Positions 43,370-47,646 of a stretch of DNA of 64,000 nucleotides are shown here, in pieces (positions within the stretch are counted from its first letter, which is position 1; every line of letters begins with the position of its first letter). Made by a program: the position numbers and the translations under genes. The DNA is taken from NCBI GenBank assembly GCA_944392965.1, contig CALXYM010000011.1, positions 738-64,737 of the forward strand. Reading direction: 5' to 3'. This DNA comes from an uncultured Spirochaetaceae bacterium (GTDB taxonomy: Bacteria > Spirochaetota > Spirochaetia > Sphaerochaetales > Sphaerochaetaceae). The notes beneath the pieces are model-generated. The model did not search any database. It was not told the origin of the DNA and saw only the letters and a list, made by a program, of their open reading frames with translations.

Positions 43370-44557
43370 ATGTCTTTGAATTCAACGCCACGCGCAGAGC
43401 GCTACCATATCGCATTCTTCGGTAATCGTAACGCGGGCAAATCAAGTCTTTTAAATGCCGTTGCAAATCAGGATCTCGCAGTAGTCTCCCCTGTGCTGGG
43501 GACGACTACTGATCCCGTGTATAAGAGCATGGAGATCCTTCCCATCGGACCATGTGTCCTTATCGATACTCCCGGTTTTGATGATGAGGGTACATTAGGG
43601 GAGATGAGAATAAAAAAGACGAGGGATGTTCTTGGAAAAGCTGATGCAGCAGTACTCGTAATAGATGGCATAACAGGTAGGAGTGAGAAGGATGATGAAC
43701 TGATCTCCATTTTTCAGGAAAGGAAGATTCCCTATATTGTCGTCTATAACAAGGAGGATGAGGTTTCAGAAAGGAAGGATGGACTCTTTTACGTCAGTGC
43801 AAAGAATAAGAGCCACATAGATGAGCTGAGGATAAAGATTTCAGAACTTAAAGCAGAGAAAGATGAGAGGCATCTGGTTTCAGATCTGATTCCGCCTCAC
43901 TCTCTTGTCGTTCTTGTGATCCCTATTGATTCTTCTGCTCCAAAAGGTCGTCTGATCCTACCTCAGCAGCAGGTGATAAGGGATATTCTTGACTCGGGAT
44001 CTTCCGTGATCGCATCAAGGGATGTAGAACTTGAAAGGACACTGGAGGAAATGAAAAGAGAGCCAGATCTCGTGATAACCGACAGCCAGGTATTCGCTCC
44101 TGTTTCAAAGATCGTACCTCAATCCATTCCCCTTACATCCTTTTCTATCCTCATGGCACGTTATAAAGGCTTTTTAGAGGAAGCCGTAAAAGGTGTGAGC
44201 AGGATAAAGGATTTAAAGGATGGTGATGACATTCTGATCGCGGAAGGATGCACACATCATAGGCAGTGTGAGGATATAGGAAGTGTGAAGATCCCATCAT
44301 GGCTGAGGAAATTCACGGGAAAGGATTTCAATTTTAATTTTTCCTCCGGTTCCGGATTCCCAGATGATTTGAGTAAATATGGCCTTATAATCCACTGTGG
44401 AGCCTGCATGCTTAATAACAGGGAAGTCCTAAGCAGAATGGAAAGGGCTATAAAGCAGCAGATTCCTTTTACAAATTACGGCATAGCGATATCCTATATG
44501 AATGGAATACTGAAACGGAGCCTTGAAATCTTTCCTGATCTTGCTGGCATTCTTTAA
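43370..44557 (+). CDS. hydF: [FeFe]-hydrogenase maturation GTPase HydF
   Basis: G1 motif GNRNAGKSS, G3 motif DTPG, and C-terminal cluster ligands EGCTHH...HCGACM. Confidence 0.9.
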   Translation: MSLNSTPRAERYHIAFFGNRNAGKSSLLNAVANQDLAVVSPVLGTTTDPVYKSMEILPIGPCVLIDTPGFDDEGTLGEMRIKKTRDVLGKADAAVLVIDGITGRSEKDDELISIFQERKIPYIVVYNKEDEVSERKDGLFYVSAKNKSHIDELRIKISELKAEKDERHLVSDLIPPHSLVVLVIPIDSSAPKGRLILPQQQVIRDILDSGSSVIASRDVELERTLEEMKREPDLVITDSQVFAPVSKIVPQSIPLTSFSILMARYKGFLEEAVKGVSRIKDLKDGDDILIAEGCTHHRQCEDIGSVKIPSWLRKFTGKDFNFNFSSGSGFPDDLSKYGLIIHCGACMLNNREVLSRMERAIKQQIPFTNYGIAISYMNGILKRSLEIFPDLAGIL

Positions 44558-44801
44558 AAACAGCCCTCAAAAGAGGGCTTTCATAAAGGAAAATTATTCA
44601 GCTTCTTAATTTGTATACAACCTTTTAATATGTATACTTTAGGTATTTTATGCTTTTAGTTACTATTGTAAGAATATTAAAAAGAATAAAATTCTTTAAA
44701 ATACCTATTTAATGTGAATTATAAGTACATTATATGCGATATATAAACATTATATTAAAAAATTAAGAAATAAAAATTTTTTAAAAATTTTTCTAAAACC
44801 T

Positions 44802-44830
44802 CTTTACAAGCTTTTTTAAAGTCGATATAT
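44802..44830 (+). promoter_or_regulatory. Orphan sigma70-type promoter in the AT-rich tract
   Basis: TTTACA (44802-44807), a 17-nt spacer, then TATATT (44825-44830), with an A/T-rich UP-like region upstream. Confidence 0.55.
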
Positions 44831-44836
44831 TACTCA

Positions 44837-44930
44837 TGGAATTAAGGAATACGCATTCCTTATTCCGAACCTCCTTTTGTTCCCCACAGAGCGGTTTACC
44901 TCCTTTTGTCCGCAGTGGGGTTTTTTATTT
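44837..44930 (+). ncRNA. Candidate ~95-nt small RNA with two exposed ACCUCCUUUUGU (anti-SD-like) motifs
   Basis: The promoter lies just upstream. There is a 5' hairpin GGAATTAAGGAAT-acgc-ATTCCTTATTCC (44837-44865). Motif 1 (44868-44879) is in the linker. The terminator stem is CCCCAC..GCGG / CCGC..GTGGGG (44881-44919), with motif 2 (44897-44908) in its loop, followed by TTTTTTATTTT. There is no ORF downstream. Confidence 0.45.
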
Positions 44931-45165
44931 TATAATGGTTTTCAAAATCTTATTTCCATAAGTATTTGTTCTGAAAACAGGATTGCCTGCGTCTTAAAAT
45001 CCAGTTCTCATTTTGGAGGGGCAGTTAAGCCCGATGTAGACTGAAATGTTTTTGCTTGTTTTCCTATGTGGGAATATTCTGGCTCTTCACGTTTTCTTAG
45101 AGGATTGAGGTCTATTTGAAGGAATGGAGATGTAGTAACCCTGAGATTAGTAACTCCTGTTTGAA

Positions 45166-45202: not shown

Positions 45203-45433
45203 TTAAATATTCGCTTTCAATGTGGTAATTTCCTCTATAGGAAGATTCGTGACATTGGCAATCGTTTCTAGGGAAAGGGAGGTTGTTTTAAGAAGGTTTT
45301 CGGCTACTTCTTTTTTACCTGAGTTTTTTCCTAGGATTATTCCCTCTTCTTTTCCAATCTCTCTACCTTCTTCCCTACCTAGGGCTCTCCCTTCTTTCCT
45401 TCCTTCCATTCTCTCTTTTCTCAATAATGGGTT
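45203..45433 (-). pseudogene. Rpn-family (PD-(D/E)XK nuclease / TIGR01784 putative transposase) gene, C-terminal fragment downstream of the IscB insertion
   Basis: NPLLRKERMEGRKEGRALGREEGREIGKEEGIILGKNSGKKEVAENLLKTTSLSLETIANVTNLPIEEITTLK shows the EG-repeat plus LS.E.IA..T.L..EEI tail typical of Rpn/TIGR01784 proteins. It is in frame with the upstream fragment once 45434-46999 is removed. Confidence 0.7.
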
Positions 45434-46999
45434 CATCAAATCATAGCCGAGGATACTCCAGCCTCTGTAGACAGGAGAGGAATCGGCTTCCTCCTTTCAA
45501 TGGTTCTTGTATTTACACGCTCAACGAGCGTGAGATTCCGATAGTGGATGCCTGAATGGACCCTAGCCCCGTCAAGTTTCCTTATATCGAAATATCCAGA
45601 GGCTCTTCTGCCATGGATATAGCAGACATCATCACCATATCTGACGATGTCGAAGAGTCCGAAGCCTCCTATCAGCTTCTCTGTCTGGTTCAGCTTCCTC
45701 TCACCGCCCTTGAGAATCGTATCCTTGTGGATTTTCCTGTTGTGGCTTCTGGTCTTGCGCATGTAATACCAACCTTCGTCAGAGGATGCTTCAGGATGCC
45801 CTGCAATGCATCTGGCATCGACGTGGTGCGATTTCTCCAGATTATGGGTAATCCTCGTGTTCTTTGTGAGGTACCCGTATGTCATGGATACATTCTCTTT
45901 CCCGTACAGCTTCTGCAGCCTGCTGTACAGCTCCCAGCGCATGACGCTCATCAGCGTTTCCGCCTTGAACTGCGGAGCTTTCTTGAAGATTGGTTTTACT
46001 ATTCCCTTATGCACGCCATCGTGGCAGTGGCTGCAGAGCGTTATGAGGTTGTCGGGACGGTCCGTGCCGCCATCCGAACGACGGATGACATGATGGACTT
46101 CAAGAGTTTTGTCTTTTGATTTTCCACCGCATATCCTGCATTTGTGTCCATCTCTATAGAGTACATATTCGCGAGTATTCCAGAAACCGAGCTGTTCTCC
46201 CTCCTGATAGCTTTTGCCTTCAATATCAGAATTCTTTATCTTCTGGATGTCGAATGCAGAGGTTTCAATTACAATACTGGATACAGGCAGGAATGAAGAA
46301 ATGAAAGCAACCATTTCCTGATGTGCTGAGAGTTTTTCTTCAATTGATGGCGGAAGCCAGCCTTCTATGCGTCTTCTGTTGTCGAAGCGTGCCTGTCTGT
46401 ATCTTGTCTTCCTGCTCCTTCTCGTTTTACGCTTCTCCCTTCTTTCCGTAAGAAGCTTTGGAATGTCGTTACGCATCTCCTCTTCCGCTTCGAAGAGGAT
46501 TTTGCTCTCCGTTGACGCCGAACAGCCGGCTGTCTGATACCCGGTGTCAACCCCGAGCGTCACAGGCTGCACCCTTTCGTTTCCGCTTCCATACAGAAGC
46601 TGGATCGTAAATGGTGAGCGTTTTACAACCTTCGCTCTTTTCTTTTTGAGAAGCCATCTGACTTTGCCATAGTGTTCTGTCGGCATCAATGGCTTTCCGT
46701 TCTGTGCGATTACATAGACCATGCAATCTCCTTTCCCGACTTAACGGGTAATGCAGGGATTGATCCCTGTCGTGAGGTATCTCTCCTCACTGTCCTTCGC
46801 CGATGTTATCGGAGGGTTATATATATCCGCAGCACTGTTCCTACCCATCAGAACTGTTTAACCACGGACCGCAGAGCGGCGGACTAGGACGACATCCGCC
46901 GGTGCCTGTATCTTCCTCCGTAACGTAGGTCTCAAAGACCTTGGGCTAGTCAACCAAGGCTTTCTCAAGCCTCACCTTCTTCAAGGTGGGGTAGTTGAC
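45434..46999 (-). mobile_element. TnpA-less IS200/IS605-superfamily element carrying iscB + omega-RNA (1566 bp; boundaries ambiguous by a 5-nt TGATG repeat, alternatively 45439..47004)
   Basis: Deleting this segment rejoins the two Rpn fragments in frame (...ESEGGKLM|NPLLRKERMEG...). TGATG is present in the flank (47004-47000, minus strand) and at the internal end (45438-45434). Subterminal imperfect palindromes lie at both ends (46973-46988 and 45446-45487). Confidence 0.75.
45436..46722 (-). CDS. iscB: IscB RNA-guided endonuclease (PLMP domain, split RuvC with inserted HNH, C-terminal TAM-interaction-like domain)
   Basis: The 428-aa ORF contains, in order:
- PLMP at aa 11-14.
- GVDTGY (RuvC-I, D59).
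- An Arg-rich helix at aa 93-118.
- IVIETSAFD (RuvC-II, E153).
- CRICGG...EVHHVIRRSDGGTDRPDNLITLCSHCH (HNH plus Cys4).
- SHHVDARC (RuvC-III).
- GFGLFDIVRYGDDVCYIHGRRASGYFDIRKLDG near the C-terminus.
The RBS AAAGGAG lies 6 nt before the ATG. Confidence 0.9.
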   Translation of the reverse strand: MVYVIAQNGKPLMPTEHYGKVRWLLKKKRAKVVKRSPFTIQLLYGSGNERVQPVTLGVDTGYQTAGCSASTESKILFEAEEEMRNDIPKLLTERREKRKTRRSRKTRYRQARFDNRRRIEGWLPPSIEEKLSAHQEMVAFISSFLPVSSIVIETSAFDIQKIKNSDIEGKSYQEGEQLGFWNTREYVLYRDGHKCRICGGKSKDKTLEVHHVIRRSDGGTDRPDNLITLCSHCHDGVHKGIVKPIFKKAPQFKAETLMSVMRWELYSRLQKLYGKENVSMTYGYLTKNTRITHNLEKSHHVDARCIAGHPEASSDEGWYYMRKTRSHNRKIHKDTILKGGERKLNQTEKLIGGFGLFDIVRYGDDVCYIHGRRASGYFDIRKLDGARVHSGIHYRNLTLVERVNTRTIERRKPIPLLSTEAGVSSAMI

Positions 47000-47020
47000 C
47001 ATCAGTTTTCCTCCTTCACT
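46723..47020 (-). ncRNA. Predicted IscB omega-RNA (HEARO-type): ~277-nt scaffold 46723..46999/47004 plus ~16-nt guide taken from the flanking Rpn sequence
   Basis: The non-coding leader is packed with stem-loops. Plus-strand coordinates are 46973-46988, 46958-46971, 46939-46959, 46928-40, 46877-46901, 46800-12, 46772-90, 46754-69 and 46735-48. There is also a long-range CGGAGG/CCTCCG pairing (46915-20 with 46810-15). The position immediately 5' of iscB matches the known omega-RNA arrangement. Confidence 0.65.
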
Positions 47021-47646
47021 CTCTTTTATTAATCTCAGCCTTTCTCGTAATATTCGATTGTGTATTTCCTCTGGTTTTGAAGTACATATATCATGTACCA
47101 CACTTCCAAGAAAGTCTTTTCTCTGGTTTGCCATGTTAACAAGCACATACTCTATCGTGATGAATGGAGTATCCTTATCCTTCCAAGTAAAAGTATAAAT
47201 GGGCTTTTTCTTCTTGAAAACATCTTTTGCATAAAAGAATATGACCGTGGCTCTTTTCCCTTGTAGATTCTTATAGGGGTATCCCTCTTCCAAAAGAGAT
47301 GAATAGAGGGCAGAACCATAGTAAGCCATCCTTTCAATTATATCTGCCTTCCTTGATGTCTGCATATCTATGGAGATGATGCTACCATCATCCGTCCTCA
47401 CTGTGACATCTGGGATAATGGTCTTGTATAGGCTTGGAAAAGGGTCTGCAGCTTTTACCAATATGATTTTCCCGTATTCAAGTCCACAGGCGGTAAGGAG
47501 GAGGGCTGTAACATCCTCTGCATCTCCAAAGCCGCTTTGAAAATCAGATCGTCACGTAAATCCGCACCTTCCAACCATGACCAATCCCTGTCGGTTTCAC
47601 GATAAGGAATATCTTCATCCCTTACAAAATCAGCTAGTTCAAGCAA
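47000..47646 (-). pseudogene. Rpn-family (PD-(D/E)XK nuclease) gene, N-terminal and core part; frameshifted near 47535-47545 and truncated by the IscB element
   Basis: Two frames are needed. One reads ...GADLRDDLIFK. The other reads SGFGDAEDVTALLLTACGLEYGKIILVKAADPFPSLYKTIIPDVTVRTDDGSIISIDMQTSRK... (the D..FK..FGD and D-x-IEMQ-like PD-(D/E)XK signature), continuing to ...LIKESEGGKLM at the insertion point. Confidence 0.7.

Follow-up and report, generated by a model that had tools for sequence, protein, structure and literature searches.

An IscB omega-RNA scaffold with a flank-derived guide, predicted upstream of iscB in a Spirochaetaceae Rpn gene

HEARO RNAs and IscB omega-RNAs reportedly go back to Weinberg et al. 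in 2010 and Altae-Tran et al. in 2021. Here we analyze a 64,000-nucleotide stretch of DNA (the window) from an uncultured Spirochaetaceae bacterium (GenBank assembly GCA_944392965.1, contig CALXYM010000011.1, positions 738 to 64,737 of the forward strand), in which an iscB gene and its densely structured leader interrupt an Rpn gene. An earlier, model-made reading of the letters alone (the sequence-only reading) had proposed that this leader is an omega-RNA scaffold whose guide is templated by the adjoining Rpn DNA. With a probability of about 0.93, the locus as a whole is best explained as an intact omega-RNA and iscB element inserted 5' of ATGAA in the Rpn gene. Positions are those of the window, and the features described lie on the minus strand (Table 1).

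The omega-RNA of OgeuIscB ends, after a pseudoknot and a linker, in two terminal hairpins (TH1 and TH2) that are bound by the PLMP domain of the protein; a 16-nt guide is sufficient in this system, with ~17 bp seen in the structure (Kato 2022, PMC9640706). For GstIscB, the experimentally determined target-adjacent motif (TAM) is TTCAT, written 5' of the transposon left end (10.1101/2023.03.14.532601). According to the same study, by Meers et al., the Rfam model RF02033 (HEARO) lacks downstream structural elements of the omega-RNA (10.1101/2023.03.14.532601).

Identity and fold of the leader RNA

The leader runs from the element boundary to the base before the iscB ATG (46722) and spans 277 nt (46999..46723), the approximate length given by the sequence-only reading. 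Its G+C content is ~0.50-0.53 as compared to 0.23-0.25 in neighboring intergenic DNA (44500-44950), which bears out the earlier description of the other intergenic DNA as AT-rich. Folding of the 298-nt stretch that contains the leader yielded a minimum free energy of -107.1 kcal/mol versus -89.4 +/- 4.8 for 200 dinucleotide shuffles (z = -3.66), none of which (0/200) folded as well. The structure of the leader is confirmed as real and exceeds chance.

Scanning the whole window against Rfam with cmscan revealed a single match, HEARO (RF02033) at 46999..46786, that spans the model from end to end (positions 1-211 of 211) and, at 143.6 bits (E = 5.6e-30), lies above the gathering score of 83; the search that had been suggested as a check on the sequence-only reading therefore returned the full model, above its gathering score. 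The match lies on the same strand as the iscB open reading frame (ORF), its model end 64 nt and its model start 277 nt from the ORF start. Among 80 related loci from a genome scan, 20 were scanned for HEARO, and in all 20 it lies upstream of iscB in the same position (97-150 bits); AAAGGAG, the iscB ribosome-binding site (RBS), is kept in most related loci.

The ORF scores 358 bits with the NCBIfam equivalog NF040563 (guided_IscB; cut-off 175), carries the Pfam domains RRXRR (RuvC; 211 bits) and HNH (51 bits), and has the motif KPLMPT at residues 10-15. Aligning it with OgeuIscB (PDB 7UTN/7XHT; E ~5e-45) showed that the RuvC-I Asp (D59), the RuvC-II Glu, the HNH His-His and the RuvC-III His..Asp are all kept, in the motif pairs GVDTG(D59)/GIDPG, IVIE/VVLE, EVHHV/HYHHV and HHVDARC/HYLDAYC. 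Together, the RNA and protein scores agree with the proposal of an omega-RNA scaffold upstream of iscB. Judged from these matches, the leader is an ordinary, apparently intact IscB omega-RNA (Rfam HEARO) scaffold, and the IscB protein is predicted to be intact, with its catalytic residues all present.

Covariation supported the fold derived from RF02033. In 19 related-locus sequences aligned with MAFFT (alignment A1), RNAalifold predicted 51 pairs, 31 of them compensatory. When the HEARO consensus was mapped onto A1, 87.2% of cells were paired, as compared to 73.5% after shuffling and 35-42% after sliding by 1-3 columns, and 42 of 73 pairs had changed on both sides, with a covariation score of 0.419 versus 0.18 shuffled and at most 0.12 slid; a comparison of homologous upstream regions, of the kind that the sequence-only reading had called for, thus came out in favor of a conserved structure. 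Stem P1, checked from cmscan start coordinates, forms 7-8 of its 8 pairs in 20 of 21 sequences (for the exception, L028, the pattern search picked the wrong TAG), and it switches in full between groups: GUCAAC/GUUGAC, CUCACU/AGUGAG, UUAAAU/GUUUAA and AUCAAC/GUUGAU. A1 itself undercounts P1 (77.6% paired) because MAFFT shifted the P1 of the CTCACT group by 2 columns. All six pairs of hairpin 1 of the guide-adaptor (6/6) changed on both sides.

A pseudoknot between GUCCU, in a hairpin loop, and AGGAC, directly 3' of the nexus-like stem, is probable from the sequence comparison: its three core pairs form in 19 of 19 A1 sequences, and one pair changes from UA (10 sequences) to AU (9), following one phylogenetic split, while the outer two pairs are lost to an alignment indel. 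A different candidate, the run of five square brackets in the Rfam structure, was rejected as a pseudoknot; in WUSS notation the brackets denote a nested stem that closes a multiloop, and RNAalifold predicts it as nested.

Every complementary segment listed in the sequence-only reading was found on the minus strand within 46999..46723, and eight of its ten helices agree with the HEARO consensus, have covariation support, or both: CACCTT/AAGGTG, GGCTT/AAGCC, GGTCT/AGACC, CGGCGGA/TCCGCCG, the long-range CGGAGG/CCTCCG pairing, which turns out to be the central stem, and three hairpins at the 3' end. The other two, CCTTGG/CCAAGG and CCGAT/ATCGG, are alternative pairings that clash with P1, the central stem and the nexus-like stem and are not kept in related loci; the segments of the former are present, but they enclose a loop of 9 nt (ttgactagc) and not of 8. 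The list was also incomplete, for it had missed P1, the 45-nt hairpin at 46869..46825, the GC/GC closing pairs of the CGGCGGA hairpin and the probable pseudoknot.

The leader thus resembles RF02033 not only in its full-length score but also in its position and strand relative to an HNH/RuvC ORF and in its helices (P1 with two hairpins, nexus-like stem, central stem and two internal hairpins); it differs in that the functional RNA very probably has two or three extra hairpins at the 3' end, a shortfall of the model that Meers et al. had already noted. OgeuIscB (PDB 7UTN, 7XHT; PMC9640706) has the same protein layout of PLMP, RuvC, bridge helix and HNH (E ~5e-45), and its omega-RNA the same parts: guide-adaptor, nexus stem, central stem, terminal hairpins and a loop-to-3' pseudoknot, the last being only probable here. 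The OgeuIscB nexus pseudoknot C93-C96/G155-G158 (PMC9640706) would be the analogue of the probable GUCCU/AGGAC pairing. The two systems differ in several respects: firstly, OgeuIscB has 496 aa as compared to 428 aa here, and the C-terminal (TAM-interacting) region did not align; secondly, its guide-adaptor is one long hairpin, whereas here it is a three-way junction; thirdly, a small hairpin lies 3' of the central stem in OgeuIscB omega-RNA but 5' of it here; and lastly, there are two 3' hairpins in OgeuIscB and three here.

These three further hairpins (46790..46735) lie 3' of the Rfam model end (46786). Ten subfamily members with 70-90% protein identity were obtained via a protein database and look-up of the encoding contigs, and were aligned with the window (alignment A2, 11 elements). 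In A2 the three hairpins were 98.8% paired versus 30-53% when slid, with 5 of 16 pairs compensatory, four of these in hairpin 1. Hairpins 1 and 2 were each 100% paired; hairpin 1 has compensatory changes at four of its six pairs (UA/CG, GC/CG, AU/GC, GC/UA) and hairpin 2 at one (AU to CG). The third hairpin was 95.5% paired: L163 has a longer stem, and L175 carries CCUC/GAGG, a double compensatory change that A2 misaligns by one column. By analogy with OgeuIscB, the omega-RNA terminal hairpins are best identified with hairpins 1 and 2, and the functional RNA very probably extends ~35-50 nt past the Rfam model 3' end, with two or three more hairpins. The third hairpin may be part of the omega-RNA or of the iscB mRNA leader only; for this hairpin taken alone, a role confined to the mRNA leader is quite possible.

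Within a distant IscB group (P1 CUCACU/AGUGAG; L026, L009, L020, L013, L024, L014, L017 and L022), two different hairpins precede the RBS. They lie between the HEARO 3' end and the RBS and include, as read by eye from A1 columns 305-388, CACUC-uucg-GAGUG and AAAUCC...GGAUUU. By eye, the terminal-hairpin module appears to vary among groups in sequence and number, its position staying constant.

Element boundaries, guide and TAM

Conservation among the 11 subfamily elements, which occupy 11 different sites, starts exactly at GTCAAC (46999), and their 5' flanks are unrelated; the 5' end of the scaffold is the transposon end in 20 more distant loci as well. At the other boundary, all 11 elements are followed directly 3' by ATGAA, the next base is never A, and from there on the flanks diverge. 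The fused Rpn protein, used as a query, matched an intact copy of 293 aa (P0001; 97% identical) that reads ...GGKLMMNPLL..., and the DNA encoding it (L081) reads ...GAGTGAAGGAGGAAAACTGATGATGAACCCATTATTG.... At this empty site AGGAGGAAAACTGATG is followed at the junction by ATGAACCC, with ATGAAC starting at the junction (site sequence ...AGGAGGAAAACTGATGATGAACCC...). L081 aligns with the left flank of the window up to the G of CTGATG and with the right flank from window position 45438, which leaves a 2-nt ambiguity (TG), and occupied and empty sites show no target duplication. With its 5' boundary fixed by the cross-locus comparison, the element is therefore placed at 46999..45437, and the guide and TAM where Table 1 gives them; by this comparison it is 1563 bp long and lies on the minus strand without a duplicated target.

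The guide length follows OgeuIscB (Kato 2022, PMC9640706). The guide 16-mer occurs in the L081 empty site directly followed by ATGAAC, and ATGAA is present there once; it is therefore target sequence and not element sequence. The same ATGAA stands at 11 of 11 independent insertion sites. A near-identical genome (L081) thus carries, as an empty allele, the matching candidate target with its TAM.

These data settle several points on which the sequence-only reading had been divided or mistaken. Of the two scaffold starts it had offered, 46999 is the one at which conservation begins in the subfamily, and the guide of ~16 nt that it had drawn from the flank is indeed Rpn-gene sequence (47015..47000). 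Its primary guide (47020..47005) was 5 nt off, as the ten other elements are conserved from GTCAAC and the 5 nt preceding it are unrelated; its alternative, shifted by 5 nt, is the guide identified here, AGGAGGAAAACUGAUG. The empty site had been reconstructed as ...AAAACTGATGAACCC..., whereas the intact Rpn copy reads ...AAAACTGATGATGAACCC..., and the TAM had been predicted as TGATG where it is ATGAA; the TGATG "repeat" is largely coincidental, and the true ambiguity is 2 nt (TG). An original site with a single TGATG copy was also considered, and was rejected by the L081 DNA and by the "KLMMNPLL" of the 293-aa protein.

ATGAA is the reverse complement of the GstIscB TTCAT. The right end reads ...GTTGAC on the top strand; its transposon-encoded motif (TEM) is TTGAC, of which GTCAA, the first 5 nt of the element on the iscB strand, is the reverse complement, and it differs from the TAM TTCAT at positions 3 and 5. 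In ISGst of Geobacillus stearothermophilus (10.1101/2023.03.14.532601), as here, the right end delimits the omega-RNA of a non-autonomous IS605-type element, TTCAT 5' of the left end equals ATGAA 3' of the target, TEM and TAM differ at positions 3 and 5, iscB is co-oriented with the upstream host gene, and the donor joint is the guide target. By contrast, the TEM is TTGAC here and TTCAC there, and the present left end does not extend beyond the iscB coding sequence, whose stop is completed by the TAM; a weak test of the 64-kb window found no cognate TnpA. The OgeuIscB TAM, NWRR(NA), is matched by ATGAA at positions 1-5; at position 6, where OgeuIscB prefers A, the subfamily never has A (0/11).

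TnpB omega-RNAs (reRNAs) of IS200/IS605 and IS607 elements are alike in that the guide RNA straddles the right end with a guide copied from the flank, that the TAM is the transposase target motif, and that donor-joint cleavage gives homing. They are different in that the RNA lies at or beyond the gene's 3' end and carries the guide at its own 3' terminus, in that the TAM is 5' of the target, and in that TnpB has RuvC only and an RNA of another family.

Table 1. Features of the omega-RNA and iscB element, its Rpn host gene, and host ORFs at the TAM of related elements
Feature	Position	Strand	Remarks
Guide segment AGGAGGAAAACUGAUG	47000..47015	(-)	16 nt, possibly 17; Rpn-gene DNA just outside transposon right end
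Guide-adaptor domain	46949..46999	(-)	HEARO model positions 1-56
Stem P1	GUCAACUA 46999..46992 with UGGUUGAC 46956..46949	(-)	encloses two small hairpins
Hairpin CACCUU/AAGGUG	46988..46973	(-)	inside P1
Hairpin GGCUU/AAGCC	46971..46958	(-)	inside P1
Core multi-helix domain	46799..46946	(-)	cmscan alignment to RF02033
Nexus-like stem, 5 bp	GCCCA 46946..46942 with UCGGC 46803..46799	(-)	closes core; one C-C mismatch
Hairpin AGGUCU/AGACCU	46941..46927	(-)	within core
Central stem, 10 bp	GUUACGGAGG 46924..46915 with CCUCCG-A-UAAC 46815..46805	(-)	encloses two hairpins
Hairpin GC+CGGCGGAU/GUCCGCCG+GC	46905..46871	(-)	inside central stem
Long hairpin GUCCGUGGU...GCUGCGGAU, 45 nt	46869..46825	(-)	inside central stem
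Pseudoknot, probable	GUCCU 46890..46886 with AGGAC 46796..46792	(-)	first strand in loop of CGGCGGAU hairpin; read from sequence
Terminal hairpin 1, GUGAGG-agagaua-CCUCAC	46772..46790	(-)	largely past Rfam model 3' end
Terminal hairpin 2, CAGGGAU-ca-AUCCCUG	46754..46769	(-)	
Third 3' hairpin, CCCG-uuaagu-CGGG	46735..46748	(-)	directly before RBS
RBS AAAGGAGA and iscB start	46720..46734	(-)	GGAG 46731..46728, ATG 46722..46720; read from sequence
iscB ORF	45436..46722	(-)	428 aa; PLMP motif, RuvC and HNH domains
Transposon left end	45437..45500	(-)	wholly inside iscB 3' end; last element base 45437
TAM ATGAA	45432..45436	(-)	TTCAT on transposon top strand; 3' of target; host Rpn codons Met-Asn
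Rpn gene 5' part (PD-(D/E)XK)	47000..47646	(-)	Pfam PDDEXK_2, TIGR01784; 97% identical to P0001
Rpn gene 3' part	45203..45436	(-)	TIGR01784 profile positions 205-271; 99.6% identical to L081 from position 960
Host ORF starting at TAM	L002:4285	(-)	350 aa, signal-peptide-like
Host ORF starting at TAM	L003:4285	(-)	676 aa
Host ORF starting at TAM	L005/L165:2087	(-)	TctB, 157 aa
Host ORF starting at TAM	L162:2087	(-)	at least 37 aa, runs off contig
Host ORF starting at TAM	L175:2087	(-)	4Fe-4S protein, 211 aa

Proposed mechanism and alternative readings

From work on GstIscB and OgeuIscB, we infer that transcription would enter from the co-oriented Rpn gene, so that the RNA would begin with flank sequence, ~16 nt of it (AGGAGGAAAACUGAUG) serving as the guide. 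The 5' part of the Rpn gene is the template of the guide and probably also supplies promoter and read-through transcription for the omega-RNA. The co-orientation of Rpn and iscB is in keeping with the bias in orientation that Meers et al. describe (10.1101/2023.03.14.532601). IscB would bind the scaffold, its PLMP domain contacting the terminal hairpins and its bridge helix and RuvC holding the guide-target duplex. The ribonucleoprotein would then cleave, at the target AGGAGGAAAACTGATG with the TAM ATGAA, either the donor joint left once TnpA acting in trans has excised the element or an allele that was never occupied, and recombination would restore the element.

The stretch 46999..45437 is thus predicted to be a non-autonomous IS200/IS605-type element that holds the omega-RNA gene and iscB only, and for this reason has no room for TnpA. 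Several results weigh against the proposal as a whole. A weak test of the 64-kb window for a Y1 TnpA, which combined tblastn, using an IS608 TnpA as query, with a motif regular expression, found none; the element could therefore move at present only with a transposase encoded elsewhere in the genome, if there is one. In the left end, the single-stranded DNA fold scored z = -1.61 (top strand) and z = -1.95 (bottom strand), a hairpin not clearly better than chance. The 64-kb window holds no second, unoccupied target, and the scan for a sigma-70-like promoter upstream found none above chance, its counts equaling those expected by chance. A lack of TnpA is expected, given that ~1.5% of iscB genes have tnpA nearby (10.1101/2023.03.14.532601), and TnpA is not required of a non-autonomous IS605-type member. 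Every testable feature of HEARO/omega-RNAs, of IscB and of IS605-type elements is present at the locus, except that the pseudoknot is only probable, that the left-end hairpin folds weakly, and that TnpA was not found in the window by the weak test.

At the right end, the top-strand single-stranded DNA fold had z = -3.74, and the hairpin CACCTT/AAGGTG lies 11 nt from the cleavage site. The left-end nucleotides (AAGCCGAUUCC...GAGGCUGGAGUAUCCUCGGCU) are strongly conserved, far above the codons just upstream (last 90 nt of the 11 elements, by eye). The left end also holds a long-range complement, AGCCGA/UCGGCU, that becomes GCCGG/CCGGC in L175, L176 and L178, a change confounded by coding constraint; this complement is probably a structure recognised by TnpA and overlaid on the coding sequence. 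A scan for a terminator after the 3' hairpins found none. The Rpn gene has, relative to L081, a 1-nt deletion at 47525/47524 (TTGGATGAT to TTGGAGAT) that shifts the frame after ...DDLIFKAAL; the gene was thereby inactivated a second time, unless the assembly is in error.

Could the element be a dead relic, its RNA fold and ORF intact only through recent insertion and nothing expressed or active? The host Rpn gene is doubly a pseudogene (insertion and 1-nt deletion), no TnpA was found in the window (the weak test above), and the JGI metagenome scan yielded no close relatives, all of which would suit such a history. It is nevertheless unlikely: the ORF is full length with all catalytic residues, and subfamily members (70-90% protein identity) have kept the ORF, the compensated RNA pairs and the TAM at 11 different sites, which argues for ongoing selection and mobility in the lineage.

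We consider it rather more improbable that all three 3' hairpins form a cis-regulatory leader of the iscB mRNA, acting in translation control, stability or processing, with the omega-RNA ending near 46786. It is there that the Rfam model stops, the third hairpin abuts the RBS, and more distant IscB groups carry different hairpins at this place. However, RF02033 is known to omit downstream elements of the omega-RNA (Meers et al., 10.1101/2023.03.14.532601), and the OgeuIscB omega-RNA has the same arrangement of two PLMP-contacted terminal hairpins after a pseudoknot and a linker (PMC9640706). Moreover, hairpins 1 and 2 covary, and none of the 3' hairpins sequesters the RBS or is followed by a U-run.

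That the conserved structure acts as DNA only, as single-stranded right-end hairpins for Y1 TnpA with no functional RNA, is very improbable: although the first ~50 nt are the transposon right end, with z = -3.74 for the top strand there, IS200/IS605 ends require just one subterminal hairpin within a few tens of nt, whereas covariation here extends over ~265 nt and includes G-U pairs (e.g., 189/207, GC:10 GU:9; 219/272, GU:9 GC:8) whose counterparts in the complementary DNA strand would be mismatched, and the region matches an RNA family with homologs that cryo-EM structures show as RNA. Over the first ~50 nt of the omega-RNA, the two roles, DNA end and RNA, coexist.

Stop and start codons at the TAM in a compact subfamily

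The iscB stop codon TGA (45438..45436) spans the element boundary, the element ending in TG and the TAM beginning with A. Among the 11 subfamily loci examined at the stop (the window, L001, L002, L003, L005, L162, L163, L166, L175, L176 and L178), the stop straddles the boundary in this way in ten; in L175 the whole TGA lies within the TAM. The overlap was considered as a general IscB trait and rejected: 95 of 107 wider-family loci (50-58% identity) have no ATGAA at the stop, and it is therefore specific to the subfamily.

At five of the 11 independent insertion sites, a long host ORF starts with the ATG of the TAM. These five elements sit between the host Shine-Dalgarno sequence (SD) and its ATG, with a TGATG stop/start overlap with iscB, and the guides at these sites contain the host SD (e.g., AAGGAGG, GAGGAGG). 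As background, candidate gene starts account for 14 of 254 ATGAA in the window (~5.5%, a rough figure); at this rate, at least 4 of 11 would be expected with a binomial P of ~0.002. Insertions placed exactly at host start codons appear to be enriched in the subfamily.

The closest IscB relatives (70-90%; loci L001-L005 and L162-L178) come from metagenome-assembled genomes (MAGs) of Spirochaetales or from a few gut-type assemblies in ENA (ERZ162681xx-ERZ162682xx, ERZ172929xx); the next relatives, at 58% identity or less, come from Firmicutes, Bacteroidota, Proteobacteria and archaeal MAGs. A scan of JGI metagenomes with the IscB protein found only relatives of 50-56% identity and no close subfamily members.

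For annotation, the locus is now resolved into boundaries given to the base, a 16-nt guide, an ATGAA TAM, an intact 428-aa IscB, and a target gene with an empty-site reference. Having a defined omega-RNA and a simple TAM of five bases, the 428-aa IscB could serve as a compact candidate for genome editing; many such are already catalogued. Biologically, the element is nothing new in kind, being another instance of IS200/IS605 guide-RNA homing. What goes beyond the textbook is specific to the subfamily: a left end within coding sequence, a stop codon completed by the TAM, and an apparent enrichment of insertions at start codons. It is a tentative and rather doubtful suggestion that the triple duty of the TAM in this compact subfamily, as target of transposase and nuclease, stop completion and host start, reflects a selected "soft-landing" strategy, the alternative to selection being the mere resemblance of ATGAA to Met-Lys/Asn starts. 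If true, soft landing would make insertions less costly and ensure that the guide is transcribed by read-through; the TGATG overlap could couple translation of the host gene to iscB, and the SD leader of the host would become the guide.

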